The notes under the pieces are model-generated. The model saw only the letters and a list, made by a program, of their open reading frames with translations, did no database searches and was not told where the DNA came from. Source: an uncultured Candidatus Sumerlaeota bacterium (GTDB taxonomy: Bacteria > Sumerlaeota > Sumerlaeia > MWCT01 > JAUWMI01). From it: 13,021 nucleotides of DNA. How positions within the stretch are numbered: position 1 is the first letter of the stretch; every line of letters begins with the position of its first letter. The stretch lies in NCBI GenBank assembly GCA_964454265.1, contig CAYVXD010000013.1, positions 35,797 to 48,817 of the forward strand. The letters are read 5' to 3'. The position numbers were made by a program, and so were the translations under genes. Shown here in pieces: positions 1 to 12,869 of this stretch.

Positions 1-188
1 CGAAAAGGCTCAAAGAGCTTCTGGCAAAAGGAAGGGAGCTGCGAATACGGGATCTTAAATTAATGCTCAAGGAATTCACGGCCCAGCAGAAAGAGCGAAC
101 AGTCCGCAGAAAAGGGAAGGTCAATAAAGTGCTTGCGGAGTTTAAGAAAGACAGATTAGAAGCGGCAAACGCCTGGCGGGCTATGTAA
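1..188 (+). CDS. 3' end of a K/R/E-rich alpha-helical repeat protein, a paralog of the downstream GvpC-like gene (5'-partial; codon phase starts at nt 3; stop TAA 186-188)
   Basis: Translates as ...LKEFTAQQKERTVRRKGKVNKVLAEFKKDRLEAANAWRAM*. It shares the [LI][KR][GE]F...A(A)xxW motif vocabulary with the 308..910 protein (LKEF, LRGFEDEREKMAAEIEKMAAHWQ). It is not in the ORF track because it is truncated by the window edge. Confidence 0.4.
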   Translation, partial: KRLKELLAKGRELRIRDLKLMLKEFTAQQKERTVRRKGKVNKVLAEFKKDRLEAANAWRAM

Positions 189-307
189 AAGAAGATGGCT
201 CACAATAGGGCCAGCTCCCCCGAGGGTTTAAACATATATTCTCAGAAAAACAGTGGTAAAAAAGCGTTACTAGAAAACGCATAGAGCAGTGAAAGGAGGA
301 GGCAAAA

Positions 308-910
308 ATGGCATTAGCTGCTGAAATGAAGGGACTATGTGACGACATCATCGCCTCGTATGATACGCGAGTAAAAGCGCTAGGAGACCTGACTACCGAT
401 GTTCACAAAACGCTCAAAGGATTTACGGCTGACAGGAAGAAGATGAGTGAACAGCAGGCCAAGGCATTGGCAAGTTTTATTGGGGACTTAACTAAAGATG
501 TCGGCAACATGATAAAAGGCTTTCGGAAAGACCATAAGGCTATGGCTGGTGAACTGAAGGATAGCCTTAGGAAAAATGTTAAGGATATTGAGACTTATAC
601 GAAAAGCAAACTCAAGGAATTCAACGATGCACACGCCGGGATGAGCACAGCGCTTAAGAAAGACCTGGCCAAATATGTCTCGGGTATGGTCAGCGAAACC
701 AGCAAGCTGCTCAGGGGTTTTGAGGATGAAAGAGAAAAGATGGCGGCTGAAATAGAAAAAATGGCAGCTCATTGGCAGACTCTAACTGCTACTATGGCCA
801 AGAAAAGGGGAGGCAAGCCTGTTGTTGTCTCAGCTAAAGAAGAAGTGATGACGGTTGAGGAAGCCGTGGCCAAAAGAGGCAAGAAAAGAGGCAGGAAAAA
901 GAAGAAGTAA
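308..910 (+). CDS. gvpC: GvpC-like gas-vesicle surface protein with four exact 33-residue repeats and a polybasic C-terminal tail
   Basis: A strong SD (AGGAGGAGG) sits 8 nt upstream of ATG 308. The motifs LKGF(aa36), IKGF(aa69), LKEF(aa102) and LRGF(aa135) are spaced exactly 33 aa apart, i.e. 99 nt. Each is followed by xDxxxM (ADRKKM, KDHKAM, DAHAGM, DEREKM). The 33-aa periodicity is the hallmark of GvpC. The tail KRGKKRGRKKKK is unusual. Confidence 0.5.
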   Translation: MALAAEMKGLCDDIIASYDTRVKALGDLTTDVHKTLKGFTADRKKMSEQQAKALASFIGDLTKDVGNMIKGFRKDHKAMAGELKDSLRKNVKDIETYTKSKLKEFNDAHAGMSTALKKDLAKYVSGMVSETSKLLRGFEDEREKMAAEIEKMAAHWQTLTATMAKKRGGKPVVVSAKEEVMTVEEAVAKRGKKRGRKKKK

Positions 911-946
911 AAGCTGACTAACCTCAGCCTTATAGGACGGATTAAA

Positions 947-983
947 CGTAAGTTCATTGGCTGAACTTACGCCCAGCTTTTTT
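947..983 (+). terminator. Putative intrinsic terminator after the gvpC-like gene
   Basis: A 10-bp perfect inverted repeat cGTAAGTTCA(947-956)/TGAACTTACg(962-971) has a 5-nt loop. A TTTTTT run lies at 978-983, 6 nt downstream; a second short GCTG/CAGC stem directly abuts the T-run. Confidence 0.4.
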
Positions 984-1071
984 CCGATACCAGGAAGCGG
1001 GATGCGATTTGCACTTTCCAGCTGCGTTCGCTTCGTCCATAACCGAGGTGCACATTTGGGAGGGGAAGACT

Positions 1072-1401
1072 ATGAGTGAGATCACGTGTGCCTTTTGTAG
1101 AGGCATAGGAAAAGACCCCTTCAATCTGCTATCCGAGCTTGCCACCTGCCAGGTATGCGCAGGCACAGGTAAAGTCGAGATTATGGAGCCGGCGATCGCG
1201 TGCGCCTTTTGTAAAGGCACTGGCGTCTATCCCCATGGTGTCCGAGTGACCTGTACTGTATGCAATGGAAAGGGGATGGTTACAGTAAAAGGTAGCACTG
1301 ATGAATGCCCTCACTGTAAAGGCACTGGCCAGGCACTAGACAGCGGCCTTCCCTGTCTAGAATGCGGAGGTAAAGGGGTGGTAACTAGAAAAGCAGCCTG
1401 A
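1072..1401 (+). CDS. Small DnaJ-CR-type zinc-finger protein, 6x CxxCxGxG (paralog 1)
   Basis: RBS GGGAGGGG at 1058-1065 precedes ATG 1072; the ORF-track start at 1009 is a non-ATG upstream extension. Motifs are CAFCRGIG, CQVCAGTG, CAFCKGTG, CTVCNGKG, CPHCKGTG and CLECGGKG. This is the cysteine-rich repeat pattern of the DnaJ/Hsp40 zinc-finger domain, occurring here without a J domain. Confidence 0.75.
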   Translation: MSEITCAFCRGIGKDPFNLLSELATCQVCAGTGKVEIMEPAIACAFCKGTGVYPHGVRVTCTVCNGKGMVTVKGSTDECPHCKGTGQALDSGLPCLECGGKGVVTRKAA

Positions 1402-1472
1402 CTTGCGGTAATAGGGTTCTTTTTGAACACAAAAAGAAAACAAGAATTTAACGAGAGAGGAGAAAGATAGAG

Positions 1473-2387
1473 ATGATTAATGAGATGACTACAGTACTTG
1501 AACCGAGTCCTCTGCCAGACTTTGTGGAAACAAAATATATAAAGGATATTGCCAAAAGGGCTCTTTCCTATATTAAGGCTGGTTTTCCTGTTCACTTTAG
1601 AGGGACTTCTGGCACTGGCAAGACAACACTTGCCATGCACATAGCAAGCAAGATCAAAAGACCCGTGGTACTGATTCATGGAGATGAGGAGTTCACCACT
1701 TCTGATTTAGTGGGCGGTGAATACGGCTATAGGATTAGGAAAGTTGTTGATCGCTTTGTATCCCGAGTTTTGAAGTTGGAAGAGGATATGGTAAAACGTT
1801 GGGTGGATAATCGGTTAACCATAGCCTGTAAATACGGATTTACTTTAATATATGATGAGTTCACACGTTCACGGCCAGAGGCAAATAATATTCTCCTTTC
1901 TATTTTACAGGAGAAGATGATGGATTTGCCAGTAGGAAGAGGTGGAGAGGACCCGTATTTAAAGGTTGATCCGGATTTTACGGCTATTTTCACGAGCAAC
2001 CCTGAGGAGTATGCAGGAGTTCATAGAAGTCAGGACGCTTTACGGGATAGAATGGTAACTATGGATTTAGACCACTTTGACTTCGATACAGAAGTCGCTA
2101 TCACCCAGGCTAAATCCAAACTCTCTAGACCACATGCTGAAATGATAGTTGCTATTGTAAGGGGGTTGAGAGAATCCGGAAAATGTGAGTTCGCGCCCAC
2201 CATCCGCGGCTGTATTATGATTGCCAAGACCCTTAAAGTTCAAGGTTTTACAGCTGTCAGCTCTAATGGTGCCTTTACGCAGATTTGTCAGGATATACTC
2301 GCTTCTGAGACAAGCAGAGTAGGTTCAAAGACCAACCAGACCAGGGTGAAAGAGATAGTTAAGGAGCTGATTAAAAAGTACAGTTAA
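1473..2387 (+). CDS. gvpN: Gas vesicle protein GvpN (AAA+ ATPase, CbbQ/NirQ/GvpN family)
   Basis: RBS GAGAGGAG lies upstream. Walker A is FRGTSGTGKTTLAMHIA, and a Walker B-like TLIYDEF follows. The ~300-aa length and the single AAA module are typical of GvpN. Confidence 0.85.
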   Translation: MINEMTTVLEPSPLPDFVETKYIKDIAKRALSYIKAGFPVHFRGTSGTGKTTLAMHIASKIKRPVVLIHGDEEFTTSDLVGGEYGYRIRKVVDRFVSRVLKLEEDMVKRWVDNRLTIACKYGFTLIYDEFTRSRPEANNILLSILQEKMMDLPVGRGGEDPYLKVDPDFTAIFTSNPEEYAGVHRSQDALRDRMVTMDLDHFDFDTEVAITQAKSKLSRPHAEMIVAIVRGLRESGKCEFAPTIRGCIMIAKTLKVQGFTAVSSNGAFTQICQDILASETSRVGSKTNQTRVKEIVKELIKKYS

Positions 2388-2417
2388 CCATCTAGGGAGG
2401 AAAGTCAAACGACTCTT

Positions 2418-2579
2418 ATGCGAGCATTTTCTAAAGTAGATAAACGTGGGAACATAAAGATTCCTGCCAATATTCAGCGAGCTGCAAGCCTTAAACAAGG
2501 CGAATTGCTTGAGCTGAAGATTGTGGGGGCAACGAGAAAGAAGAACGTTTTGGTTTCGGCCAGAGGTAGTACGAGGTAG
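2418..2579 (+). CDS. 53-aa AbrB/SpoVT (MazE-like swapped-hairpin) family small DNA-binding protein, putative regulator
   Basis: Not in the ORF track because it is under 60 aa. It translates as MRAFSKVDKRGNIKIPANIQRAASLKQGELLELKIVGATRKKNVLVSARGSTR*. The pattern 'KVDKRGNIKIPANIRRA..L..GE.LEL' matches the SpoVT/AbrB N-terminal domain signature (kvD.kGRivIPkeiRe.lgi..Gd.lel). GGGAGG lies upstream. Confidence 0.5.
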   Translation: MRAFSKVDKRGNIKIPANIQRAASLKQGELLELKIVGATRKKNVLVSARGSTR

Positions 2580-2612
2580 ATCTCCAAATTTTTTCATGTA
2601 GGGGCGATAACA

Positions 2613-2945
2613 ATGAGAGATGTGAACACTTTAAAAGGACTCCATTCAGCAAGAACTATACATAGCACAAGGAAACGTTCAATACCCAGAATTCAGAGCT
2701 CACCCTATTTAGATTTATATATGCTTAATAAAGAGAAAGAAAGGCTTGTGAAAGAAGATCAAAGACTATCTATGAGGAAGGATGCCATTAAAAAGCGCCT
2801 GGAAGAAATAGACCTGGAAATGAATAAGATAGAAGAATCTGGGGCAGCCGAGAGAGCCAATAGACAAGCGGGTTCTTTAGAACACGCTTCTACTGAAGGC
2901 AATGATATCAAAAAAGAATGGAAGAAGCTTCGTTTAAACTATTGA
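2613..2945 (+). CDS. Hypothetical charged coiled-coil protein (possible gvp accessory protein)
   Basis: RBS GTAGGGG sits 8 nt upstream of ATG 2613. The C-terminal half is heptad-like and K/E-rich (LNKEKERLVKEDQRLSMRKDAIKKRLEEIDLEMNKIEE). It is co-oriented and tightly spaced with its neighbours. Confidence 0.5.
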   Translation: MRDVNTLKGLHSARTIHSTRKRSIPRIQSSPYLDLYMLNKEKERLVKEDQRLSMRKDAIKKRLEEIDLEMNKIEESGAAERANRQAGSLEHASTEGNDIKKEWKKLRLNY

Positions 2946-2963
2946 TTTCTTAAAGCGAGTCGC

Positions 2964-3374
2964 ATGCATTGGGAGACATTCAATTTTAAGGCCAGCAGGA
3001 CCAGGCTAGGTCGAACAATAGGCCGTGTTCTAGAAGGCAGGAAGTTTACCTGTTCCTTATGTGCTGGTACAGGGATACTGCCCAGGAGCAAAGGCATAGA
3101 ATGTCCAGTATGTAAAGGTGCGGGCATAATCAATTTACAGGGACCTGTAGTTGTATGTGCTTATTGTAAAGGCAGAGGCGACTATCCGGCCAGAACAAAT
3201 ATTACCTGTACCGTCTGTGGAGGGAAAGGCCTGGTTAGTATTACCGAGCCTGTTGAAATATGTAAACATTGCAGGGGAACCGGCGCAGAGCCAGAGAATA
3301 AACTTCCTTGCCTGGAATGCAGAGGTAAAGGTGTTGTTCCTCGTTTTGTTCCGGCTGAGTCTCACTCCGAGTAA
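2964..3374 (+). CDS. Small DnaJ-CR-type zinc-finger protein, 6x CxxCxGxG (paralog 2)
   Basis: Motifs are CSLCAGTG, CPVCKGAG, CAYCKGRG, CTVCGGKG, CKHCRGTG and CLECRGKG, colinear with the 1072..1401 protein. The RBS is weak, and the start lies 18 nt after the upstream stop, so translational coupling is likely. Confidence 0.7.
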   Translation: MHWETFNFKASRTRLGRTIGRVLEGRKFTCSLCAGTGILPRSKGIECPVCKGAGIINLQGPVVVCAYCKGRGDYPARTNITCTVCGGKGLVSITEPVEICKHCRGTGAEPENKLPCLECRGKGVVPRFVPAESHSE

Positions 3375-3423
3375 AACGAGGGATTACGAAGTCAAAATGG
3401 ATGATTAGAAAGGAGAAAAGATC

Positions 3424-3696
3424 ATGAAAGTAGAAGAAGTAAATAAGGCAATCGTAGAGTTTTTGAAATCTACTGTTAATGCAAATGCTCGAGATGCGAA
3501 AGTAATAAAGGTGGAGAGGTCGCAAGATGGGTGGATAGGTGAGGCTGAAGTTTTTGAGGAGAGTGCATTTATTAAATCTTTAGGTCTACCTACAAAGGTT
3601 CAGGATAGAAATATCTATGAGATTAAATTAACTGATACCCTGGAAGTAATTTCTTATTCACGAAAACATGCATCTTTAGGGGTTGAAAATGGCTGA
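3424..3696 (+). CDS. gvpO: GvpO-like gas vesicle protein
   Basis: RBS AGGAG lies upstream. The core VIKVERSQDGWIGEAEVFEE...YEIKLTDTLEVISYSRKH matches the conserved GvpO C-terminal pattern (V.rv...dG.W.v.vEvvE...IP...D....YEv.ld..g.l..y.R), as recalled from haloarchaeal and bacterial GvpO. The stop overlaps the start of the next gene. Confidence 0.6.
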   Translation: MKVEEVNKAIVEFLKSTVNANARDAKVIKVERSQDGWIGEAEVFEESAFIKSLGLPTKVQDRNIYEIKLTDTLEVISYSRKHASLGVENG

Positions 3697-4015
3697 TCAG
3701 ATAGTTCATGCAGTTCAAGCAACAAATCTGGCGGATATATTAGAAAGGGTCTTAGATAAAGGTATAGTTATCGCTGGAGATATTAAGATTCAACTTGCTG
3801 ACATTGATCTTCTCAACATCAAGATAAGGCTTTTGATTGCCTCCGTAGATAAAGCCATGGAAATGGGGATAAATTGGTGGCAACACGATTCTTATCTTTG
3901 CGCCAATTCGAAAGAGACGGAGCTAGAGCAAGAAAATCACTCTCTGAAGAAAGAGTTTAAATCGCTTAAGTCAAAAGTGGAGGACGTAATTTCAAAGTAT
4001 AAGAGACAAGAATGA
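3689..4015 (+). CDS. GvpA/J/M-family gas vesicle structural protein (GvpJ-like, with a charged coiled-coil C-terminal extension)
   Basis: NLADILERVLDKGIVIAGDIKIQLADIDLLNIKIRLLIASVDKAMEMG is the conserved GvpA-family core (LaevlDRiLDKGvVi.adi.vsl.dieLL.i..R.viASv). AGGGG lies 6 nt before ATG 3689; the track's start at 3683 is a non-ATG extension. The sequence 'GDIKIQLAD' resembles GvpJ/M more than the GvpA 'AWVRVSLVG'. Confidence 0.8.
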   Translation: MADQIVHAVQATNLADILERVLDKGIVIAGDIKIQLADIDLLNIKIRLLIASVDKAMEMGINWWQHDSYLCANSKETELEQENHSLKKEFKSLKSKVEDVISKYKRQE

Positions 4016-4069: not shown

Positions 4070-4351
4070 ATGAGCTGGCGAGCGACGGAGTGCACCAATC
4101 AAAATGTAGCGCGAGTCCATGAAGTTTCTGCCAAGGATGTCTATACGTGTGGTATTTGCGGGGGCACAGGTCTTTTGTTTTCTAAAGTGGGCATAGAACA
4201 CCCTGTTTGTTCAGGCGAAGGGAAAGCAAATATCCCGCACTTGGCTGTAATTTGTGCCTACTGTGATGGAACAGGCAAGAGGAATGAAAGGAGTGGCCTC
4301 CCTTGCCTGTATTGTTTATTTTGGGATAGATGCCGGGGACGCGACTATTAG
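4070..4351 (+). CDS. Degenerate DnaJ-CR-type zinc-finger protein (paralog 3; motifs partly eroded)
   Basis: RBS GGAGGGG immediately precedes ATG 4070. Motifs are CGICGGTG, HPVCSGEG (the first Cys is replaced by His), CAYCDGTG and CLYC, followed by a non-canonical tail (LFWDRCRGRDY). This gives only about 3.5 motifs against 6 in the paralogs. Confidence 0.6.
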   Translation: MSWRATECTNQNVARVHEVSAKDVYTCGICGGTGLLFSKVGIEHPVCSGEGKANIPHLAVICAYCDGTGKRNERSGLPCLYCLFWDRCRGRDY

Positions 4352-4463: not shown

Positions 4464-5003
4464 ATGGGAAAAGAAAAAGAGAAAAAAGAAGATGAAGAAT
4501 TGGATATTGATTTTGGCATAGGTAGATTAGGCCTGAGGGGTTTATTTCAAGGCATAGAGAACTTGGTAGATCTTGCAGCGAAATTGAAAGAGGCAGGCGG
4601 CGAAATCAAGAAAGAAGGCGAAATTGACTTAAGCCATCTTAAAGAAGGTATGAAGGGAGTTTTTGGTTTCTCAATAAAGACAGCGGTGGGAGGGAAGCCA
4701 GTAGTCGAGTCGTTTGGTAACATCAAAAGGACTCCTAGGGGCCCTACTGTTGAAGAAGAAAGAGAACCTATTATAGACATCTTTGACGAAGAAGGAGAAG
4801 AGGTTCGACTGTACGCTGAAATGCCAGGCGTCAATGAAGAAGATATAAAGCTGGATTTAAAAGAGGATATTCTTGATATTTCAGCGCAGACCGGAGACAG
4901 AAAATACCACAAAGAAGTTTTACTCCCGGCAAAAGTTGAACCTGAGAGCCTTACGTCGAGTTATAGAAATGGTATTTTGGAAATAATAACGAAGAAATGT
5001 TAA
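4464..5003 (+). CDS. Hsp20/alpha-crystallin family small heat-shock protein (GvpH-like)
   Basis: The C-terminal alpha-crystallin domain reads EPIIDIFDEEGEEVRLYAEMPGVNEEDIKLDLKEDILDISAQ...YHKEVLLPAKVEPESLTSSYRNGILEI. The N-terminus is an acidic, K/E-rich region. Haloarchaeal GvpH is an Hsp20-like protein. Confidence 0.75.
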   Translation: MGKEKEKKEDEELDIDFGIGRLGLRGLFQGIENLVDLAAKLKEAGGEIKKEGEIDLSHLKEGMKGVFGFSIKTAVGGKPVVESFGNIKRTPRGPTVEEEREPIIDIFDEEGEEVRLYAEMPGVNEEDIKLDLKEDILDISAQTGDRKYHKEVLLPAKVEPESLTSSYRNGILEIITKKC

Positions 5004-5008
5004 ATTAA

Positions 5009-5944
5009 ATGGCATTGGCCGACATAAGAGAAGATGGGTTAAAATTAATTCTATTCGGAGGGAAAGGCGGTGTGGGAAAGACGACCTGTGCCTCAAGCAC
5101 AGGTCTTTATTTAGCTAAAGATTTTAAGACCCTGCTTGTTTCTACGGACCCAGCCCATTCGTTATCTGACAGTTTAGGGCAAAACATTGGTGACGAGATT
5201 AGCGAAATAAAAGGAATAAGAAACTTAAGCGCTGTTGAAGCAAGCGCGGAAAAGGCCCTTTCAAGATTCAAAATAGAATACGAAGATGAGATAAAAAAGA
5301 TTTTAGATACCTCTACTTATTTGGACCAGGAAGATATTGACTCTGTCTTTGACTTGCCTATTCCAGGTCTGGATGAGGTAATGGGATTCAAGACGATCAT
5401 TGATCTTATTGATGAGGCGGAGTTCGACAAATACATTGTTGATACGGCGCCTACCGGCCACGCGCTGAGACTTCTGGCCTTGCCGGATCTGCTTGATGAC
5501 TGGATCAAAGTGGTGGCGAAGATGAGATGGAAGTATCGGTATATGATCGACAGATTTGCCGGAAGGTACAACCCGGACGAAGGCGATGACTTTTTGCTGA
5601 CTATGAAGAAGACGGTAAAGAGGATAGAAGGCCTACTTCGCGATAAAAAAAGATGCGAATTCATAGCAGTTACAATCCCAGAAGAAATGGCCATTTTGGA
5701 GACTGACAGACTGATTAACAGTTTAGGCAGCTATGGGATGAAGGTGAAACGGCTCATTATTAATAATGTATTAGAATCAAGAGATTGTGCATTTTGCCGA
5801 GAAAGAAAAAAGGAACAAGAGAAATATATCGGCAAGATAAGAAGGAAATTCAGCAGCCTCCAGATAACAATTACTCCATTACAACCTAGAGAGGTTAGAG
5901 GGATACAAGACCTGGAGAATTTCAAAGAGCTGCTATTTGGGTAA
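5009..5944 (+). CDS. Get3/ArsA-family P-loop ATPase (anion-transporting ATPase-like)
   Basis: The deviant Walker A is [10 protein letters not shown]. The Get3/ArsA signature [12 protein letters not shown] is present. A CxxC pair (CAFCRERKK) sits near the C-terminus, resembling the Zn-binding dimerisation CxxC of Get3-type proteins. It starts 5 nt after the Hsp20 stop. Confidence 0.8.
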
Positions 5945-5946
5945 TT

Positions 5947-8088
5947 ATGACGAAGAAAGATGACAATGCAATGACATTGAAAGTGCAAGAAGCTTTGTCA
6001 AAGGATGTGGGCAGGGCAATTGCAAGGATAGACCCTGAAGATATGAAAAGTTTAGGGCTCGAAGTGGGAGAAATAATAGAGATTGGAGGTAAAAGAAAGA
6101 CGGCGGCGAAGGTAATGCCCTGTTATGCTGAAGATAGAGGGAAGAAGATTATTCAGATGGACGGGATCTCAAGAGAGAATGCCCAAATCGGTTTGGATGA
6201 AAAGGCAAAGATTCGTAAAGTTGGTCATAGACCCGCTAATAAAATCAAGCTCTCACCATTAACTGCATCACACCTGGTTCAAAGAGATAAGGATGCCAAA
6301 TATATCGGCTCTCTCATTGCAGGGATCCCTGTTTCCACCGGTGATAGGGTTAGAGCTACGCTTTTTGGATCAAGATCCTGCGATTTTAAGGTAGTAGGTA
6401 CTATCCCTGATGGGGTGGTATTGGTAAGTCCAACCACCATAGTGAGGATGGAGACAAAGAAATTAGGTGAAAGGGGTCCAGCCAAAGTTGCATATGAAGA
6501 TATTGGCGGACTCGGCACACAAATTCAAAGAATCAGAGAAATGATAGAACTTCCTCTACGATATCCTGAAGTTTTTGAGAGACTGGGAATCGATGCGCCG
6601 AAAGGTGTTTTTCTCTACGGACCACCGGGGACGGGAAAGACTTTAATTGCTCGAGCCGTGGCGAATGAAACGGACGCTTATTTTACTCATATATCAGGCC
6701 CTGAGATTATGGGCAAGTTCTACGGTGAAAGCGAGGCGCGTTTAAGAAGCGTATTTGAGGATGCCCAGAAACATGCGCCCGCTATAATCTTTATCGATGA
6801 GATAGATGCCATTGCCCCTAAAAGAGAAGAGATGGGCGGGGAGAAACAGGTTGAAAGACGTGTTGTGGCTCAGCTTTTAGCGCTGCTAGATGGATTAGAA
6901 TCTCGAGGGGAGGTAGTGATAATAGGAGCGACTAATATTCCTAATACTATAGACCCAGCCTTAAGAAGACCAGGACGGTTTGATAGAGAAATAGCCATCC
7001 CTATACCGGATAGGAATGGAAGATTAGAGATCTTACAGATTCATACCAGAGGCATGCCTCTTGCAGAAGACGTCAGCGTAGAAAAACTAGCTGAAATAAC
7101 TCATGGCTTTGTAGGAGCAGATTTAGAGGCCTTGGCAAGAGAAGCAGCTATGTCGGCTTTAAGGAAGATATTACCTAAAATAGATTTTGAATTGGCCGAT
7201 ATCCCATATGAGACTTTGATGAAGTTAGAAGTGACAATGGATAATTTTCTGGAGGCAATGAGGGAGGTCGAGCCATCGGCGATTAGAGAAGTGTTTGTAG
7301 AAGTCCCGGATGTGAAATGGAGTGATGTGGGCGGCCTCGATGATATCAAGGAAGAGCTAAGAGAGGCGATAGAATGGCCGCTTGAATATTCAGATGTTTT
7401 TAAGAAAGCAAGTACTCATCCTCCCAAAGGGATTTTGCTCTATGGATTACCTGGCACAGGGAAGACACTCCTGGCCAAGGCAGTGGCTAATGAAAGCGGG
7501 GTTAATTTTATATCCATTAAAGGTCCACAACTTATTAGCCGTTATGTTGGAGAATCAGAGCGAGGGGTGAGGGAGATATTCAAGAAGGCGAAGCAAGCTG
7601 CGCCAACAATACTTTTTCTGGATGAAATAGATAGCCTTGTTCCAATAAGAGGCTCAAGTTCTACAAGCGGTCATGTGACAGAGAGGGTAATAAGCCAATT
7701 TTTAACGGAAATGGATGGGATTGAGGAGCTTAAAGGGGTCGTTGTTTTAGCAGCTACTAACAGATTAGATTTAATTGACCCAGCATTACTAAGAAGTGGA
7801 AGATTGGACCTTTTGCTCGAGTTGCCTGCACCAGATGAAAAAGCCAGGGAGGAGGTATTCAAAATCCATACTCGCAATAAGCCGCTTGCCAAGGATGTTG
7901 ATTTGAAAAGCCTGGCCAAGGAGACTGAAGGTAAAGTAGGCTCTGACATTGAATTTATCTGCCGAAAGGCCTCTATGTTTGCGATAAGAGAATTTATAGA
8001 AAATCCAAAGGAGAAAAGCGGACCTATTATCAGAAGAACGCATTTTGAAGAGGCCATTAAGCTATTAGAAAAAAGAACACACGAATGA
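5947..8088 (+). CDS. Cdc48/VCP/p97-type AAA+ ATPase (N-domain plus tandem D1/D2 AAA modules)
   Basis: Two Walker A sites are present, [19 protein letters not shown] and [19 protein letters not shown]. The Walker B sites are [10 protein letters not shown] and [13 protein letters not shown]-like arginines occur ([22 protein letters not shown]; [19 protein letters not shown]). The N-terminal segment is a Cdc48_N-like double-psi barrel. The gene is 713 aa long and starts 2 nt after the Get3 stop. Confidence 0.85.
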
Positions 8089-8161
8089 AGATCCTCGGCC
8101 ACAAAATTAGAGGTAAAAGGGCTTTCGGCCTATCTTGATTGTCAGTAAGAAAGGAGGAGAG

Positions 8162-8188
8162 ATGCAATTTTTAGGATTTGTCCTATGA
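8162..8188 (+). other. Candidate 8-codon upstream ORF (MQFLGFVL*) behind a near-perfect SD in the 215-nt intergenic region
   Basis: AAGGAGGAGAG at 8151-8161 is immediately followed by ATG 8162, then CAA TTT TTA GGA TTT GTC CTA TGA. This is the strongest SD in the window, but it drives only a tiny ORF. Confidence 0.2.
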
Positions 8189-8251
8189 CTTGAGTAGGGC
8201 GCTGTATGCAATAAAGTTAAGAACTTCTTCTTTGCCTTTGTCCTGAAAGTG

Positions 8252-8286
8252 CCTTAGGGGAGGGCATGGTGTTGCCTCCCCTAAGG
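8252..8286 (+). promoter_or_regulatory. GC-rich stem-loop overlapping the ribosome-binding region of the GvpF/L-J gene
   Basis: CCTTAGGGGAGG(8252-8263) pairs with CCTCCCCTAAGG(8275-8286) as a perfect 12-bp inverted repeat; GCA/TGC pairs can extend it and the loop is about 6 nt. The 3' arm runs into AAGGTG, the SD for ATG 8304. No T-run follows, so it is not a classical intrinsic terminator. Confidence 0.4.
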
Positions 8287-8303
8287 TGAAAAGGTGTGCC
8301 ATA

Positions 8304-9434
8304 ATGGATAGAATAGGAAAATATATTTACGGAATTATAACTTCTAATGGAAAAGAGCTTTTTGGCTCTTGTATGCCAGCCGAAGCATCGGTGCAGGCAG
8401 GAGCGATTACAGCCTGTGAAGAAGCTCTCTCGATTAGAGGTGCCTCGGACGCTCCTGGAGAGTGCAAAACTCCTGGGGCCGTTTATACTATTCCATATCA
8501 GGATATCTCGGCTGTGGTTAGCGACTCAGAGATAGCTGATTATGGCCTTTTACTTAAGGATGAAGTAGCCAGGCGGTTAATTAAACATCAGCGGGTAATT
8601 GAAAAGGTTATGGAGAACTTTATGATTATTCCGATGCGGTTAGGAACTTTTGCTTACGATGCAGATGAGGTGGTCCGTATTTTGGCTCAAGGCTATATAA
8701 TAACTAAAGGCATATTTAATAAGGTATTTGATAAAATAGAGATTGATGTAGTTGCGGTGTGGAATGATTTCAATTCAGTCCTTCAAGAGGTAGTAGAAGA
8801 GAAAGAAATTAAGGAATTAAAAGGCAGACTCTTAGCTAATCCTAATGGGATAACGAAAGATGACCAGATGAAAGTGGGGATGATGGTTAAAAATCACCTG
8901 GATAAGAAAAGAGAAAAATGTGCTTTTGAGATACAAAGTGTTCTAAAGACTATTAGCCATGATTTTAGGGTACATGAGCTTATGAATGATAGAATGGTTA
9001 TTAATATGGCCTTTTTGATAAGTAAGGCCAAGGGTGAAGATTTCGATAGGAAAGTAGAAGAGCTAAATACTGCATTTGCTGATAAGTTAAATTTTAGATG
9101 TGTTGGGCCGCTTCCGCCTTATAGTTTTTACACGCTGGAGATAAAGAAGATGCAAATTGAAGAAATGGATTGGGCGAGAAAGAAACTCGGTTTAAATGAT
9201 GCTACAAGTAAAGCTGAAATTAAGAAAGCCTATCAGAGGCTAGCCTTTACTTCTCATCCTGATAAAAACTCACATATGCCAGGAACAGAAAGAGAATTTG
9301 ATGATGTTAATAAGGCTTACAGGATACTAATTGACTATTGTGAGGCTTGTGAACAGGTAAGCCAGCAAGATAGTTTTTCTCTTAGTGCGGAGGGATTCAA
9401 AAAGAACGCAATTTTGGTTACAGTGAGAGAATAG
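8304..9434 (+). CDS. GvpF/GvpL-family gas vesicle protein with a C-terminal DnaJ J-domain fusion
   Basis: SD AAGGTG lies 7 nt upstream of ATG 8304; the ORF-track GTG at 8286 is probably an over-extension. The N-terminus GKYIYGII is the GvpF/L-typical YxYG(I/V) start. The region HQRVIEKVMENFMIIPMRLGTFAYDADEV is paralogous to the 9436, 10773 and 12051 GvpF/L genes. The C-terminal ~60 aa reads DWARKKLGLNDATSKAEIKKAYQRLAFTSHPDKN...FDDVNKAYRIL, a J-domain with an intact HPD motif. Confidence 0.8.
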   Translation: MDRIGKYIYGIITSNGKELFGSCMPAEASVQAGAITACEEALSIRGASDAPGECKTPGAVYTIPYQDISAVVSDSEIADYGLLLKDEVARRLIKHQRVIEKVMENFMIIPMRLGTFAYDADEVVRILAQGYIITKGIFNKVFDKIEIDVVAVWNDFNSVLQEVVEEKEIKELKGRLLANPNGITKDDQMKVGMMVKNHLDKKREKCAFEIQSVLKTISHDFRVHELMNDRMVINMAFLISKAKGEDFDRKVEELNTAFADKLNFRCVGPLPPYSFYTLEIKKMQIEEMDWARKKLGLNDATSKAEIKKAYQRLAFTSHPDKNSHMPGTEREFDDVNKAYRILIDYCEACEQVSQQDSFSLSAEGFKKNAILVTVRE

Positions 9435-9435
9435 T

Positions 9436-10206
9436 ATGCACAAAGAAGGAAAGTATGTTTATTGTATTATTGGCACAAAGCAGGAAAGAAATTTTGGACC
9501 TATAGGCATAGGTAGAAGAGGTGATGAGGTCTTAACTATTGGCTATGATGACCTAAGCATGGTTGTAAGCAATCATCCTATGGCCAAACTTGTTGTTAAC
9601 TTGGAAAATATATTAGCCCATGAGAAGATAACTGAGGAGGTAATGAGAGAATTTGACAGTGTTCTTCCAGTTCGATTTGGAACTATTGCGTCCAGCGCGG
9701 ATGAGATAAGAAATCTTTTAGGTAGAAGGTTTAGAGAATTTAAGAATTCTCTTAGAGATATGGATCACAAAGTAGAATTAGGTGTTAAGGGTTTATGGAA
9801 AAATATGGATGAGATTTTTAAAGAGATCGTTGAAGTGAGCAAAGGAATTAAGACGGCGAAAGAAAAAATTCTGAACGATACCGGCAAGAAGAACACCGAG
9901 GCTAAAAGGGAAGTAGGCAAGATGGTTGAGCAGGCTTTGGCAAGGAAAAAGGAAAAGGAAGCCGAGAAAATAGTGCGTGCGCTACGAAGAACATCCTTTG
10001 ATTATAAGCTTAACAAAACAATTGATGATGAGATGTTCATGAATGCTGCCTTTTTGGTTGATAAAGGAAGAGAAAAAGAATTTGACAATATTATGGATGA
10101 TTTAAGTGAGCAATACAAGGAGAGAATATTGTTTATGTATGCAGGTCCTTTGCCTGTATTTAATTTTGTCAATATTACGATATATCCAGAGGAATGGGAA
10201 AAATAA
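9436..10206 (+). CDS. GvpF/GvpL-family gas vesicle protein (paralog 2)
   Basis: The N-terminus reads GKYVYCIIG...FGPIGIGRRGDEVLTIGYDDLSMVVSN. The region ILAHEKITEEVMREFDSVLPVRFGT and the C-terminal LFMYAGPLPVFNFV are colinear with the other paralogs. It starts 2 nt after the previous stop. Confidence 0.8.
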   Translation: MHKEGKYVYCIIGTKQERNFGPIGIGRRGDEVLTIGYDDLSMVVSNHPMAKLVVNLENILAHEKITEEVMREFDSVLPVRFGTIASSADEIRNLLGRRFREFKNSLRDMDHKVELGVKGLWKNMDEIFKEIVEVSKGIKTAKEKILNDTGKKNTEAKREVGKMVEQALARKKEKEAEKIVRALRRTSFDYKLNKTIDDEMFMNAAFLVDKGREKEFDNIMDDLSEQYKERILFMYAGPLPVFNFVNITIYPEEWEK

Positions 10207-10207
10207 A

Positions 10208-10558
10208 GTGGCCTTCAGTGGGACAGAAGCAGAAATCATAAATAGCGTTGCCCGATTAAGAAAAGCAACCAAGCACCAGATAAAAAGAGCGGTGGGTTTT
10301 TCATTAGAGTATGTAGGTTTCTTATGTCGGTATTTAGTTAGGAAAGGGTATTTAGTATTTCATAATAGGCATTATTCTTTGGCAAATGCAGGAATAGGAA
10401 CATTACTGACAGAAGAAGTGCCCAAGATTGATAGAAAGTTAATGAATGAGATAGCAAAAGAAGTAGCTGCGAAGATTGGCGGCGAGTTAAAAAGGACAAT
10501 AGAAGGCACACAGATTAATGGAATACGTTATAAAGAATATAAAGCAGCAGTTCAATAA
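10208..10558 (+). CDS. Hypothetical winged-helix-like protein (probable GTG start; possibly a remnant of a disrupted gene)
   Basis: The ORF-track start at 10106 would overlap the preceding gene by 100 nt in another frame. An in-frame GTG at 10208 directly follows the upstream stop at 10204-10206. The segment EAEIINSVARLRKATKHQIKRAVGFSLEYVGFLCRYLVRKGYLV looks like an HTH plus wing. The tail DRKLMNEIAKEVAAKIGGELKRTIEG loosely resembles the MreB/actin subdomain (DeaIinyIrr..g.lIGe.tAE.iK.eiG). Confidence 0.35.
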   Translation: MAFSGTEAEIINSVARLRKATKHQIKRAVGFSLEYVGFLCRYLVRKGYLVFHNRHYSLANAGIGTLLTEEVPKIDRKLMNEIAKEVAAKIGGELKRTIEGTQINGIRYKEYKAAVQ

Positions 10559-10772
10559 GGCAAGGGGAATGCCGCGGATACAGAAGCCAATTAAGATAGT
10601 GCTATCCGGAGGGACATCTTTGCCAAAAGGTTTTGCCCAGAGATTTAAAAAGATCTTGGATCGGTTGAGTCTGCCTGTTCCAGTTGGAGAAGTGAGGATG
10701 GCGTCTCAGCCTCTGAAAAGTGTAGCGAAAGGAGCATTAGTGGCAGCTAGTGCTGATGGAGGCAAGAAATAG
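10518..10772 (+). pseudogene. 84-aa ORF carrying only the C-terminal 'adenosine' motif region of an actin/Hsp70-fold ATPase (MreB/ParM/Hsp70 NBD-like), a likely gene fragment
   Basis: KIVLSGGTSLPKGFAQRFKKILDRLSLPVPVGEVRMASQPLKSVAKGALVAA matches the MreB/actin C-terminus (VLTGGGALLRNLD..L.....IPV.VAEDPL.CVA.GaG). The N-terminal ~250 aa of the fold are absent. The ORF overlaps the upstream ORF by 41 nt in a different frame, and a frame-0 TAG at 10500-10502 blocks any upstream extension. Confidence 0.4.
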
Positions 10773-11540
10773 ATGGAAGTGGCCTTAAAAGAAGGTAAGT
10801 ATATATACTGCATAATAGAGTCAAATCAATCTCAATCATTTGGCCCATTGGGCATTGGCGGAAGAGGTGATCAATTATATACTATCTGCTTTAATGGTAT
10901 TGCCGCAGTGGTGAGCAATGCTCCGATTAAAAAATATCCCATCTCAAGAGAAAATACCCTTGGCCATGAGAAGGCAATTGAGGAGGTAATGAAAGAACAT
11001 ACAGTTTTACCAGTTAGATTTGCTACAATTGCCGAAGACGAAGGGAAGGTTAAGAAGATATTAGAAAAAGAGCACGACAGATTTAAAGGTCTGTTAGATA
11101 AGATGAGAGACAAGAAAGAGCTGGGGCTTAAAGCAATATTTAGAGAAGATGTTGTTTATAAGGATATTTTGGAAAGATACGAAGATATAAGGGTGTTAAA
11201 GGAAAAAACAGCCGGATTGCCTTCTGATAAGACGTATTATCAACGTATGGAAATAGGAAGAATGGTGGAGGCTGCTCTGCAAAAAGAGAAAGAGATTTAT
11301 AAAGGGGATATATTAAATACTTTATCGCCGTTGGCAGTGGAAGTTAAGACCACCGATACCTATTACGAGCTGATGATTATAAATGCCGCCTTCTTGGTGG
11401 AAGAACACAGAGAGGCAGAGTTTGATCAAGATGTGGAGGGACTTGCGGACAAGTATGTCGAAAAGGTTAGATTCAAGTATGTAGGCACGCTGCCAGCATT
11501 TAATTTTGTTAATCTGCTTATCAGGACAGAGGAATATTAA
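10773..11540 (+). CDS. GvpF/GvpL-family gas vesicle protein (paralog 3)
   Basis: The N-terminus reads GKYIYCIIE...FGPLGIGGRGDQLYTICFNGIAAVVSN. Further matching segments are LGHEKAIEEVMKEHTVLPVRFAT and KYVGTLPAFNFV. ATG 10773 abuts the upstream stop at 10770-10772. Confidence 0.8.
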   Translation: MEVALKEGKYIYCIIESNQSQSFGPLGIGGRGDQLYTICFNGIAAVVSNAPIKKYPISRENTLGHEKAIEEVMKEHTVLPVRFATIAEDEGKVKKILEKEHDRFKGLLDKMRDKKELGLKAIFREDVVYKDILERYEDIRVLKEKTAGLPSDKTYYQRMEIGRMVEAALQKEKEIYKGDILNTLSPLAVEVKTTDTYYELMIINAAFLVEEHREAEFDQDVEGLADKYVEKVRFKYVGTLPAFNFVNLLIRTEEY

Positions 11541-11541
11541 G

Positions 11542-11778
11542 ATGCTCTTAATTGACGATATATTGCTTGCCCCACTAAAGGCTGTCGTTTGGATGGGGAA
11601 GAAAATTAATGAGGTGGTGGAGAAGGAAGTGTCAGATGAGGGGCGAATAAAAGAGAAGCTCATGGAATTGCAATTACGGTTTGAATTGGATGAAATAAGT
11701 GAGCAAGAATATGATAAACAAGAGAAAGAGATTTTAGCGCAATTGGATGCTATTAGAAAGGCCAAAGAGGAGGTTTGA
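11542..11778 (+). CDS. gvpG: Gas vesicle protein GvpG
   Basis: MLLIDDILLAPLKAVVWMGKKINEVVEKE...GRIKEKLMELQLRFELDEISEQEYDKQEKEILAQLD matches the GvpG family pattern (M..iDDl...P..g..wl...iqe...eE......l...L..L...L..GEIseeEy...E.ell..L). GAGGAA lies 7 nt upstream of ATG 11542; the track's 11506 start lies inside the previous gene. Confidence 0.75.
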   Translation: MLLIDDILLAPLKAVVWMGKKINEVVEKEVSDEGRIKEKLMELQLRFELDEISEQEYDKQEKEILAQLDAIRKAKEEV

Positions 11779-11780
11779 AA

Positions 11781-12040
11781 CTGGTTAATATAGAAGAAGC
11801 CGGAAAAGCAACAGGTGCGGAGTTTTTGAAAAGACCTTTGGGGTAAAAGAGATAAAGGTCATTAAGGCAATACAGATTGGCAATGGCTGGGAGAATGAAG
11901 CAGAAGTATATGAAGAGAGCTATTAAAAGGCCCCTGAATTGTCAACTGGAGTGCAGGGCGGGAATACCTATTAGGTGAAACTAAACGATGGATTAGAAGT
12001 TGAAACCTATGGGTTTGATGGGATTCAGCAAGATTTCTAA
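11781..12040 (+). pseudogene. Frameshifted and stop-interrupted remnant of a second GvpO-like gene (paralog of 3424..3696)
   Basis: Frame 0 (11781-11846) reads LVNIEEAGKATGAEFLKRPLG*, corresponding to VEEVNKAIVEFLKSTVNA of the 3424 gene. After a -1 shift near 11843 it reads VKEIKVIKAIQIGNGWENEAEVYEESY* (cf. DAKVIKVERSQDGWIGEAEVFEESAF), then KAPELSTGVQGGNTY*VKLNDGLEVETYGFDGIQQDF* (cf. LGLPTKVQDRNIYEIKLTDTLEVISYSRKH). There is one frameshift and two in-frame stops (TAA 11924, TAG 11972). Confidence 0.55.
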
Positions 12041-12050
12041 TGGGGTGAAT

Positions 12051-12869
12051 ATGGAAGTAGCAAAGAAAGACCTCATCTATTTGTATTGTGTCACAAATAA
12101 GGTACCCAAGTTGAAAGAGGTAGAAGATTTGGTCGATGAACTTAGTTTTGTTCATCACTGCGGTCTTTATGCTGTGGTTAGCAAAGTCTTAGGATGTGAG
12201 TTTAGCGAGGAAAATCTAAAGAAGAATTTATGTGATATAGAGTGGGTAAAGCTTAAAGCAAGTATACACGAGAAGATAATAGAAGGGGTTATGAGAAATA
12301 GCTGTGTAGTTCCTTTTAAGTTCGCAACTTTATTCAATACCAAGGATAACTTGAAAGCGTGCATGAAGGAACATGAGGAAGAACTGAAAGAGAATTTAAA
12401 CAACTTAGAGGGCAAGGAGGAGTGGGGGGTAAAGATTTACTGTGACGCGGAAAAGTTAGAAGAAAGCCTCGTACAGGAAGATGAAGAGATCTTAAAGATC
12501 CATAAGGAAATTAGTTCTTCTACGCCTGGGAAGGCCTTTTTCTTGAAGAAGAAAGAGGAAGAGTTACTGAATATAGCAGTAAATAAGAGGATCAATGAAT
12601 ATGGTCAAGATAGTTTTGCTAGGCTTCGAGAACAGAGTCTTCAAACGCGTTTCAATAAATTATTGCCAAAAGAAGTGACTGAAAGAAAGGATGATATGGT
12701 TCTGAATTCTGCCTTTTTAGTTGAGAAGGAGAAGGTGAGTGCATTTATGAGCACGGTAGGTGTTCTGAAAGCACAACATGAGTTCAGCGGGCTATTCTTT
12801 GATTGCACCGGTCCTTGGCCACCTTACAATTTCTGTGATTTTTCAAGAGAAAAAGCACAAAATGGATAA
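12051..12869 (+). CDS. GvpF/GvpL-family gas vesicle protein (paralog 4)
   Basis: GGGGTGA lies 3 nt before ATG 12051; the track's 12000 start would run through the pseudogene remnant. The N-terminus reads KKDLIYLYCVT. Further matches are IHEKIIEGVMRNSCVVPFKFATLF and the C-terminal FDCTGPWPPYNF (cf. CVGPLPPYSF, YAGPLPVFNF). Confidence 0.75.
   Translation: MEVAKKDLIYLYCVTNKVPKLKEVEDLVDELSFVHHCGLYAVVSKVLGCEFSEENLKKNLCDIEWVKLKASIHEKIIEGVMRNSCVVPFKFATLFNTKDNLKACMKEHEEELKENLNNLEGKEEWGVKIYCDAEKLEESLVQEDEEILKIHKEISSSTPGKAFFLKKKEEELLNIAVNKRINEYGQDSFARLREQSLQTRFNKLLPKEVTERKDDMVLNSAFLVEKEKVSAFMSTVGVLKAQHEFSGLFFDCTGPWPPYNFCDFSREKAQNG

Follow-up and report, generated by a model that had tools for sequence, protein, structure and literature searches.

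Why would a bacterial gas-vesicle (gvp) cluster encode, besides the AAA+ ATPase GvpN, a second AAA+ protein that resembles the Cdc48/p97 unfoldases? The question is raised by a stretch of 13,021 nucleotides (nt) from an uncultured Candidatus Sumerlaeota bacterium (contig CAYVXD010000013.1, positions 35,797 to 48,817; henceforth referred to as the window), which constitutes a gvp cluster with all of its genes on the plus strand. A first-pass annotation of this DNA had read the gene at 5947-8088 as a full Cdc48-like protein (N-domain, D1 and D2, with both rings intact), had placed it inside the gvp operon and in addition to GvpN, and had suggested that it might recycle or collapse gas vesicles or extract misassembled GvpA. 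The analysis described here reveals that a canonical unfoldase family has been recruited, as a distinct bacterial clade, into the operon of a protein organelle, and points to the process that this unfoldase may serve.

The gene and the parts of its product are as follows.

5947..8088, plus strand: Cdc48/VAT-type double-ring AAA+ ATPase gene, an open reading frame (ORF) of 713 residues with an ATG start, identified by Pfam, TIGR01243 and VAT 5g4f
5974..6459, plus strand: N-domain, consisting of the CDC48_N and CDC48_2 subdomains (residues 10-171), the presumed substrate or adaptor binder
6484..7296, plus strand: D1 AAA ring (about residues 180-450), from motif reading and alignment with VAT
7309..8016, plus strand: D2 AAA ring (about residues 455-690), from motif reading and alignment with VAT
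8017..8088, plus strand: C-terminal tail, short and hydrophilic (...LLEKRTHE), without an HbYX motif

The domain search that had been proposed for this gene (CDC48_N, AAA and AAA_lid) returned all three families, and together with the catalytic motifs it confirmed the N-D1-D2 architecture with two intact rings. In Pfam, CDC48_N covers residues 10-92 (E 3e-26) and CDC48_2 residues 116-171 (E 1.4e-9), followed by two copies each of AAA (E 1.4e-91) and AAA_lid_3 (E 1e-28). The protein scored 959.3 bits against the NCBIfam model TIGR01243 ('CDC48 family AAA ATPase'; cut-off 802.65), and its top match among solved structures was Thermoplasma acidophilum VAT (5g4f, E 4.2e-225, residues 5-705), with p97 and Cdc48 next. 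Since identity to the solved VAT is about 50% over the full length, the Cdc48 fold is unambiguous. In D1 we located Walker A (GPPGTGKT from residue 225, with K231), Walker B (D284-E285), sensor-1 (N330), the Arg fingers R340/R341/R344 and a pore loop at K257-F258-Y259-G260; the corresponding elements of D2 are GLPGTGKT from residue 500 (K506), D559-E560, N605, R616/R619 and R532-Y533-V534-G535. Both pore loops are aromatic and of the VAT type: KFYG in D1 and RYVG in D2 of the window protein align with KYYG and KWVG of VAT, respectively. Two subfamily-level PAN models, NF003069 (604.7 bits) and TIGR01242 (587.8 bits), exceed their cut-off of 500 by way of the two AAA stretches, and the two equivalog PAN models, FtsH, CdvC and IteA stay below their own cut-offs and match the shared AAA cassettes only. 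The identification is far beyond chance; every sequence criterion that we examined assigns the predicted protein to the Cdc48/VAT family, and it is virtually certain that the gene is a real one for an active-looking ATPase of this family, its activity being predicted from the intact motifs.

Having established what the gene encodes, we consider whether its position among gvp genes is a peculiarity of this genome. The best 80 Cdc48 matches in a collection with one genome per species, 63-85% identical to the window protein, span about 18 phylum-level groups by their record titles, including Latescibacteria, Nitrospirota, Planctomycetota, Aminicenantes, Nitrospinota, Cloacimonadota, Omnitrophota, Ignavibacteriales, Patescibacteria, Thermodesulfobacteriota, Victivallales, Clostridia, Atribacterota, Actinomycetota, Bacteroidota, Marinimicrobia, Dehalococcoidia, Chlorobiaceae, Acetothermia and Acidobacteriota; the closest of the 80 is from Ca. 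Latescibacter (85%). The first-pass annotation had named unrelated neighbours in relatives as a finding that would speak against it, and we found the opposite: 68 of the 80 genes are flanked by gvp genes on the same strand and stand at the matching position of a gvp cluster. The only isolate seen with such a gvp-linked copy is Desulfoluna spongiiphila AA1 (L070); a second protein search, started from a Desulfobacteraceae copy, yielded unnamed proteins and proteins of metagenome-assembled genomes only. The conserved order is [GvpA/J], p200, (Zn), GvpN, p110, (Zn), Hsp20, (ArsA), Cdc48, and thereafter GvpF/L two or three times, GvpG, GvpO, GvpF and GvpA/J (p200, p110 and the zinc-finger genes, Zn, are described below). 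Among the 68 gvp-linked loci, an Hsp20 gene lies at most 1.3 kb 5' of Cdc48 in 57, ArsA lies directly 5' of it in 22 and is thus an optional member, and a GvpF/L gene begins less than 700 nt 3' of it in 58. A J-domain with its HPD motif is found 3' of Cdc48 in 51 of these loci; in 46 of them it falls 770-1300 nt past the Cdc48 stop codon, a distance that corresponds to the C-terminal end of the adjoining GvpL gene.

The reciprocal comparison gave the same picture. In 80 metagenome loci selected by way of GvpN, those that reach at least 4.5 kb downstream of gvpN are informative, and Cdc48 followed Hsp20/ArsA in every one of them (26/26). On a 552-kb Omnitrophota contig (L081), independent precomputed Pfam labels give a matching order: GvpA, ..., GvpN, ..., HSP20, ArsA, CDC48, GvpL+DnaJ, GvpF, GvpF, GvpG, ..., GvpF, GvpJ, GvpF, GvpK. 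The pairwise-identity matrix of Cdc48 correlates with those of Hsp20 (r 0.83), GvpG (0.75) and GvpN (0.64; Mantel p <= 0.001), which fits inheritance and transfer as one unit, with shared species phylogeny also contributing; that identities between different phyla reach 80-85% suggests that the cluster as a whole has spread horizontally. The linkage between Cdc48 and gvp genes is not accidental. Because it is conserved in this way (68/80; 26/26), a gas-vesicle-related role is well supported, and Cdc48 is very probably tied to gas vesicles in its function.

The gvp-linked proteins are also distinct as a group. Outside the clade, the nearest proteins are Cdc48s of Bathyarchaeota, Thermoplasmatota, Halobacteria and Asgard archaea and a Dadabacteria protein, at 53-58% identity, and in a neighbour-joining tree all 78 Cdc48 sequences from the loci and the window formed one clade apart from these comparators and VAT. 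Walker A, Walker B, sensor-1 and the Arg fingers of both rings are 100% conserved in 67 gvp-clade sequences, and the pore loops remain aromatic throughout. Fractional identities within the clade, between the clade and archaeal Cdc48s, and among archaeal Cdc48s were 0.81, 0.66 and 0.67 for D1, 0.70, 0.58 and 0.60 for D2, and 0.56, 0.31 and 0.33 for the N-domain, in which conservation reaches at least 90% at 47 positions and 10 residues (P30, D32, R64, D116, G121, L123, G126, A137, F140 and D146) are specific to the clade. This pattern of N-domain conservation is the one expected if the domain recognises one conserved partner. The tails of the clade, on the other hand, are short, variable and hydrophilic. 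The Cdc48 of T. acidophilum (TaCDC48) needs an HbYX tail for activation of the 20S proteasome (PMC3493965), and when the pattern [LVIMGAPFYW][FY]x at the very end of the protein (Forouzan et al., PMC3493965) was applied to 86 complete C-termini (76 clade members and 10 comparators), none matched. Since the comparators lack the motif as well, its absence does not separate the gvp clade, and it argues only against canonical docking to the 20S particle. We accordingly set aside a proteasome-docking Cdc48 (no HbYX); a ClpB-type disaggregase was rejected for want of an M-domain or inserted coiled coil, with the ClpA and ClpB models far below cut-off, and the anti-phage ATPase IteA was rejected because its model scored 236 bits where 510 are required. 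An archaeal origin is possible for the chaperone part of the cluster, because its Hsp20 passes the archaeal equivalog cut-off and the nearest outside Cdc48s are mainly archaeal.

A few close relatives lie outside gvp clusters, and these bear on the possibility that Hsp20, ArsA and Cdc48 form a general stress-chaperone island which travels with gvp genes and serves bulk proteostasis, with no vesicle-specific client. In eight Synergistales loci (L045, L053, L068, L069, L071-L074), a Cdc48 65-67% identical to that of the window is found without gvp genes, in a conserved housekeeping setting with an aminotransferase gene upstream and a TPR-SLT transglycosylase gene downstream; a strong terminator-like hairpin follows the gene, and most gvp-linked copies have no strong hairpin there. 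A Scalindua locus (L060) carries Hsp20, Cdc48 and Hsp20 with no gvp genes within 13.7 kb. Both cases, together with the fact that Hsp20 and Cdc48 are families of general proteostasis, are in keeping with such an island. A further locus (L008) is represented by a fragment of 3.8 kb, the sole genes of which are Zn, Hsp20, ArsA and Cdc48. However, the Synergistales copies nest within the gvp-linked clade (neighbour-joining tree, no support values) and may represent a domesticated descendant that secondarily lost its gvp context. Moreover, Cdc48 is fixed between Hsp20 and the GvpL-J-domain gene across some 18 phylum labels, even where identity falls to 63%, the J-domain forms one polypeptide with a Gvp protein, all 26 informative loci selected through GvpN carry Cdc48, and the N-domain is far more conserved in the clade than among the archaeal Cdc48s compared. 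We therefore regard a general stress island as very improbable.

What the unfoldase might act upon is suggested by the genes around it, which in the window are the following.

308..910, plus strand: p200, helical repeat protein; weak apolipoprotein-like match
1009..1401, plus strand: DnaJ-type CXXCXGXG zinc-finger protein, copy 1, without J-domain; Pfam DnaJ_CXXCXGXG E 2e-11
1473..2387, plus strand: GvpN, the canonical gas-vesicle AAA+ protein; TIGR02640 340 bits against a cut-off of 267; Pfam AAA_5
2613..2945, plus strand: p110, 110-residue protein 3' of gvpN; conserved position in most loci
2964..3374, plus strand: DnaJ-type CXXCXGXG zinc-finger protein, copy 2, without J-domain; Pfam E 5e-14
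3424..3696, plus strand: GvpO-like gene; Pfam GvpO, weak
3683..4015, plus strand: GvpA/J-family gene; Pfam Gas_vesicle E 7e-17; NCBIfam GvpJ/GvpA below cut-off
4070..4351, plus strand: third Cys-rich zinc-finger ORF, weaker, without J-domain; weak Anti-TRAP-like match only
4464..5003, plus strand: Hsp20 small heat-shock protein; Pfam HSP20; NF041800 147 bits against a cut-off of 140
5009..5944, plus strand: ArsA/Get3/TRC40-family ATPase, single-domain, 311 residues; ArsA_ATPase E 3e-80; TIGR00345 272 bits
8304..9434, plus strand: GvpL/F with C-terminal J-domain (HPD); GvpL_GvpF E 5e-52, DnaJ E 8e-14
9436..10206, plus strand: GvpF; Pfam GvpL_GvpF
10106..10772, plus strand: remnant of a winged-helix/actin-like gene pair; ORFs 10106-10558 and 10518-10772
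10773..11540, plus strand: GvpF; Pfam GvpL_GvpF
11506..11778, plus strand: GvpG; Pfam GvpG E 4e-19
12000..12869, plus strand: GvpL/F; Pfam GvpL_GvpF

Cdc48 thus sits in a run of chaperone-type genes amid assembly genes, among them the three further GvpF, GvpF and GvpL/F genes downstream (GvpL_GvpF E 1e-55 to 1e-66 in Pfam). Three other statements of the first-pass annotation hold: Cdc48 is encoded in addition to GvpN, a true copy of which is found at 1473-2387; the gene lies inside the gvp cluster, which occupies one strand with close spacing; and it starts 2 nt behind the Get3-like gene (TAA at 5942-5944, tt, ATG at 5947), with a gap of 5 nt between Hsp20 and ArsA. The most informative context had gone unmentioned there, namely the conserved Hsp20 gene upstream and the J-domain fused to the downstream GvpL. 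This J-domain lies at about nt 9186-9335 with its HPD motif intact; for the start of its gene the ORF listing gives GTG at 8286, and ATG at 8304 (MDRIGKYIYGII) is likelier. The fusion implies direct recruitment of the host Hsp70 to a gas-vesicle assembly factor, and no mention of it was found in the gas-vesicle literature that we consulted.

On this basis we suggest, tentatively though as a quite possible reading, that Cdc48 is a factor dedicated to gas vesicles which acts on the assembly side in the quality control and disaggregation of GvpA-family proteins. VAT and Cdc48 unfold proteins by threading them through their pore loops. In the window, an active hexameric double-ring unfoldase would be a dedicated component of one widespread bacterial type of gvp cluster and the motor of a chaperone module made up of Hsp20, optionally ArsA/Get3, the GvpL-J-domain protein and the nearby J-less zinc-finger proteins. 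The shell proteins of the GvpA/GvpJ family, which are very hydrophobic, would be held by Hsp20 (a holdase), by the substrate-binding zinc fingers of DnaJ type and by ArsA/Get3 (an ATPase that binds hydrophobic segments), the GvpL moiety would bind GvpA while its J-domain recruits the host Hsp70 (DnaK), and the clade-specific N-domain of Cdc48 would recognise the client or an adaptor. Polypeptide would then be threaded through the aromatic pore loops of D1 and D2, such that shell subunits are pulled from off-pathway aggregates, mis-assembled ribs or collapsed shells, released unfolded, recaptured by the holdases and inserted correctly with GvpN and GvpF/L acting; no protease would take part. 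Previous work showed that GvpA aggregates and is proteotoxic without assembly factors (PMC12848028), and that GvpF/L bind GvpA and are proposed chaperones, with the mechanism of GvpA solubility an open question (PMC10903477). As GvpA is hydrophobic, aggregating and toxic, and given the make-up of the module, a dedicated unfoldase or segregase appears to be the most economical reading; correction and reuse are favoured over disposal because the gene lies among assembly genes and no protease gene was found among the genes of the window or at L081.

Several points weigh against assembly-side quality control. To our knowledge, Halobacterium, Anabaena, B. megaterium and Serratia make vesicles without Cdc48, which is therefore not a universal requirement. 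Judged by its domain architecture, Cdc48 has no M-domain, the element by which ClpB/Hsp104 dock to Hsp70, and we infer its cooperation with Hsp70 by analogy. We could identify no ubiquitin-like tags in these bacteria that might serve as a recognition signal. As regards the comparative material, the Cdc48 trees are distance-based and carry no support values, related loci were annotated by tblastn with the window's own proteins, the taxonomy of the relatives was taken from the record titles of metagenome-assembled genomes, and the relatives, picked by similarity to the query, say little about other types of gvp cluster.

The serious rival, and the main one, is that Cdc48 is a dismantling machine which strips GvpA from intact or pressure-collapsed vesicles for active loss of buoyancy or clearance of shells, with the subunits in one variant of this idea perhaps passing to an unlinked protease. 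The conserved gvp linkage fits dismantling just as well as it fits assembly-side quality control, and the extraction of subunits from very stable assemblies is a hallmark of Cdc48/p97; furthermore, the existence of a mechanism for gas-vesicle degradation is an acknowledged open question (PMC10903477). However, a gene amid assembly genes and 2 nt from its upstream neighbour would be an odd place for a destroyer, since this position indicates that Cdc48 is probably co-expressed with the proteins of the shell and of its assembly. The lack of a protease gene in the window and at L081 and of an HbYX tail in the clade also speaks against dismantling, and the presence of a holdase and a J-domain next to Cdc48 suggests that the client is reused, not discarded. 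We consider dismantling fairly unlikely overall. In its boldest form, which strikes us as unlikely, the clade would be an ATP-driven 'de-vesiculase' that takes GvpA out of the amyloid-like shell of intact or collapsed vesicles without a ubiquitin-like tag. If true, it would let cells lower their buoyancy and recycle shell protein, would for the first time define a physiological substrate and an organelle on which a bacterial Cdc48 acts, and would provide a portable tool for erasing acoustic reporter vesicles.

The same position among assembly genes, beside the GvpL/F genes for proposed nucleation or chaperone factors, and the constancy of Cdc48 in this type of cluster would also be expected of a positive assembly motor that unfolds or primes new GvpA or a nucleation complex and is obligatory for shell growth alongside GvpN. 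In contrast, model clusters build vesicles without Cdc48, and the clusters with Cdc48 retain GvpN, which already provides for the step that usually requires ATP. An obligatory motor is thus quite improbable, and quality control of GvpA-family proteins on the assembly side remains the reading that we prefer.

Other features of the window and its relatives are recorded here. p200 has one to three tandem paralogues 5' of gvpN in related loci and no family match above cut-off, and the partial ORF at 3-188 (frame 3) indicates that the window begins within an upstream p200 paralogue; p200 might be a GvpC-like outer reinforcing surface protein or a functional analogue of GvpC. p110 has no match to a Pfam or NCBIfam family. 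The three small zinc-finger proteins also match the anti-TRAP model and recur in many related gvp clusters; the third copy (4070-4351), which has tblastn relatives in 14 loci, looks degenerate. Between the two gvpF genes, the 84-residue ORF at 10518-10772 has a match to the Volactin actin-like family (Pfam, E 4e-15) that is confined to the C-terminal end of the family. At the same place two related loci (L002, 9319-10886; L004, 14041-15698) have a winged-helix-like gene of about 175 residues and a full-length actin-like gene of about 350 residues, and four more (L098, L102, L142, L147) have matches to both ORFs. By this comparison, we read 10106-10772 as a deletion remnant of the winged-helix/actin-like pair; an actin-like gene in some gvp clusters may be of interest, for example with regard to vesicle positioning.

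The spacer of 215 nt between Cdc48 and gvpL (8089-8303) is unusually long, gvpL following at once in most related loci. It contains a mini-ORF (8163-8189, MQFLGFVL) with a strong Shine-Dalgarno sequence and, at 8250-8286, directly before the gvpL start codon, a hairpin with a perfect stem of 12 bp (CCTTAGGGGAGG...CCTCCCCTAAGG; -31 kcal/mol, z = -3.4) and no T-run, the seed of which is found again at the same place in L081 and, at about 80% over 50 nt, in L049. The spacer could be an element of translational or processing control. An Rfam search of the window returned no match, and a sigma-70 promoter scan of it gave fewer sites than shuffled controls and no usable operon boundaries. At L081, positions 1-3569, 5' of the cluster, encode a PAS histidine kinase, response regulators and a sigma-54 activator, which hints at sigma-54-dependent control of this type of gvp cluster.

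A further rival reading is that Cdc48 is a regulatory unfoldase which removes or inactivates a regulator of gvp expression or vesicle number, in loose analogy to GvpD of haloarchaea, through which the amount of the activator GvpE is reduced. Some related clusters include a gene for p150, a small protein of winged-helix-like type, the sigma-54 two-component system lies just 5' of the cluster in L081, and AAA+ unfoldases often control regulators. Yet the conserved partners of Cdc48 (Hsp20, J-domain, zinc fingers, Get3) are of chaperone type and are not regulators, and p150 is present in a minority of loci whereas Cdc48 is constant. A regulatory role is most improbable in our judgement, and it and the view of Cdc48 as a passenger gene are the less likely readings.

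In the open-access literature and bioRxiv we came across no report of a link between gvp clusters and Cdc48 or VCP; the sole mention of Cdc48 that we found in a gas-vesicle paper was as a Ni-NTA contaminant, and public records label these genes simply 'CDC48 family AAA ATPase'. Reviews list the solubility and delivery of GvpA, and any specific mechanism of vesicle degradation, as open questions (PMC10903477), and GvpA aggregation is the main source of toxicity for vesicles used as acoustic reporter genes (PMC12848028). The module of Hsp20, Get3, Cdc48 and the GvpL/J-domain protein is a concrete, testable candidate for both questions and offers candidate genes to add to engineered gas-vesicle clusters. 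For the AAA+ field, the module places the sporadic Cdc48s outside actinobacteria in a defined cellular setting and gives them a likely client, in organisms that lack ubiquitin.

Compared with known systems, the locus shares individual parts with several. Castillo and Saier (2010; PMC2963123) reported that gvp operons of Bacteroidetes/Chlorobi, Geobacter, cyanobacteria and Acidobacteria contain hsp20 as well as genes for ArsA homologues; their ArsA proteins have two domains and about 600 residues, whereas that of the window is a single domain of 311 residues, and 'cdc48' occurs nowhere (0 times) in their text. GvpN, like Cdc48, is an AAA+ protein encoded in the same gvp cluster, but it is a single-ring AAA_5 (MoxR/dynein-like) protein of 304 residues with no Cdc48 N-domain; reviews state that every gvp cluster contains GvpN and that cylinder growth depends on it (PMC10903477), and Cdc48 is an extra component specific to this type of cluster. 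Ziemski et al. (PMC6017811) reported that sporadic non-actinobacterial Cdc48 homologues cluster with those of archaea and proposed that they were acquired by horizontal transfer; a gas-vesicle cluster context is not described there. Their actinobacterial protein Cpa is, as in the gvp-linked clade, a bacterial Cdc48-family protein without a classical HbYX motif, and it differs in forming its own actinobacterial cluster and in binding the 20S proteasome, the gvp-linked clade being a different branch (PMC6017811). With archaeal Cdc48/VAT and eukaryotic Cdc48/p97 the window protein has in common the N-D1-D2 architecture and two complete ATPase sites. Unlike archaeal Cdc48/VAT it is bacterial, encoded in a gas-vesicle operon and part of a separate clade, and unlike its archaeal and eukaryotic counterparts it has no ubiquitin or SAMP context. 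Finally, as in the system of small heat-shock protein (sHsp), DnaK/DnaJ and ClpB (Hsp104), a holdase, an HPD-bearing J-domain and a two-ring AAA+ motor of the threading type are encoded together here; in contrast to that system, the place of the motor is taken by a classical-clade Cdc48, GvpL carries the fused J-domain and the cluster contains no Hsp70. By analogy, the module thus resembles an sHsp/Hsp70/ClpB triad rebuilt around Cdc48 and tethered to a gas-vesicle protein.

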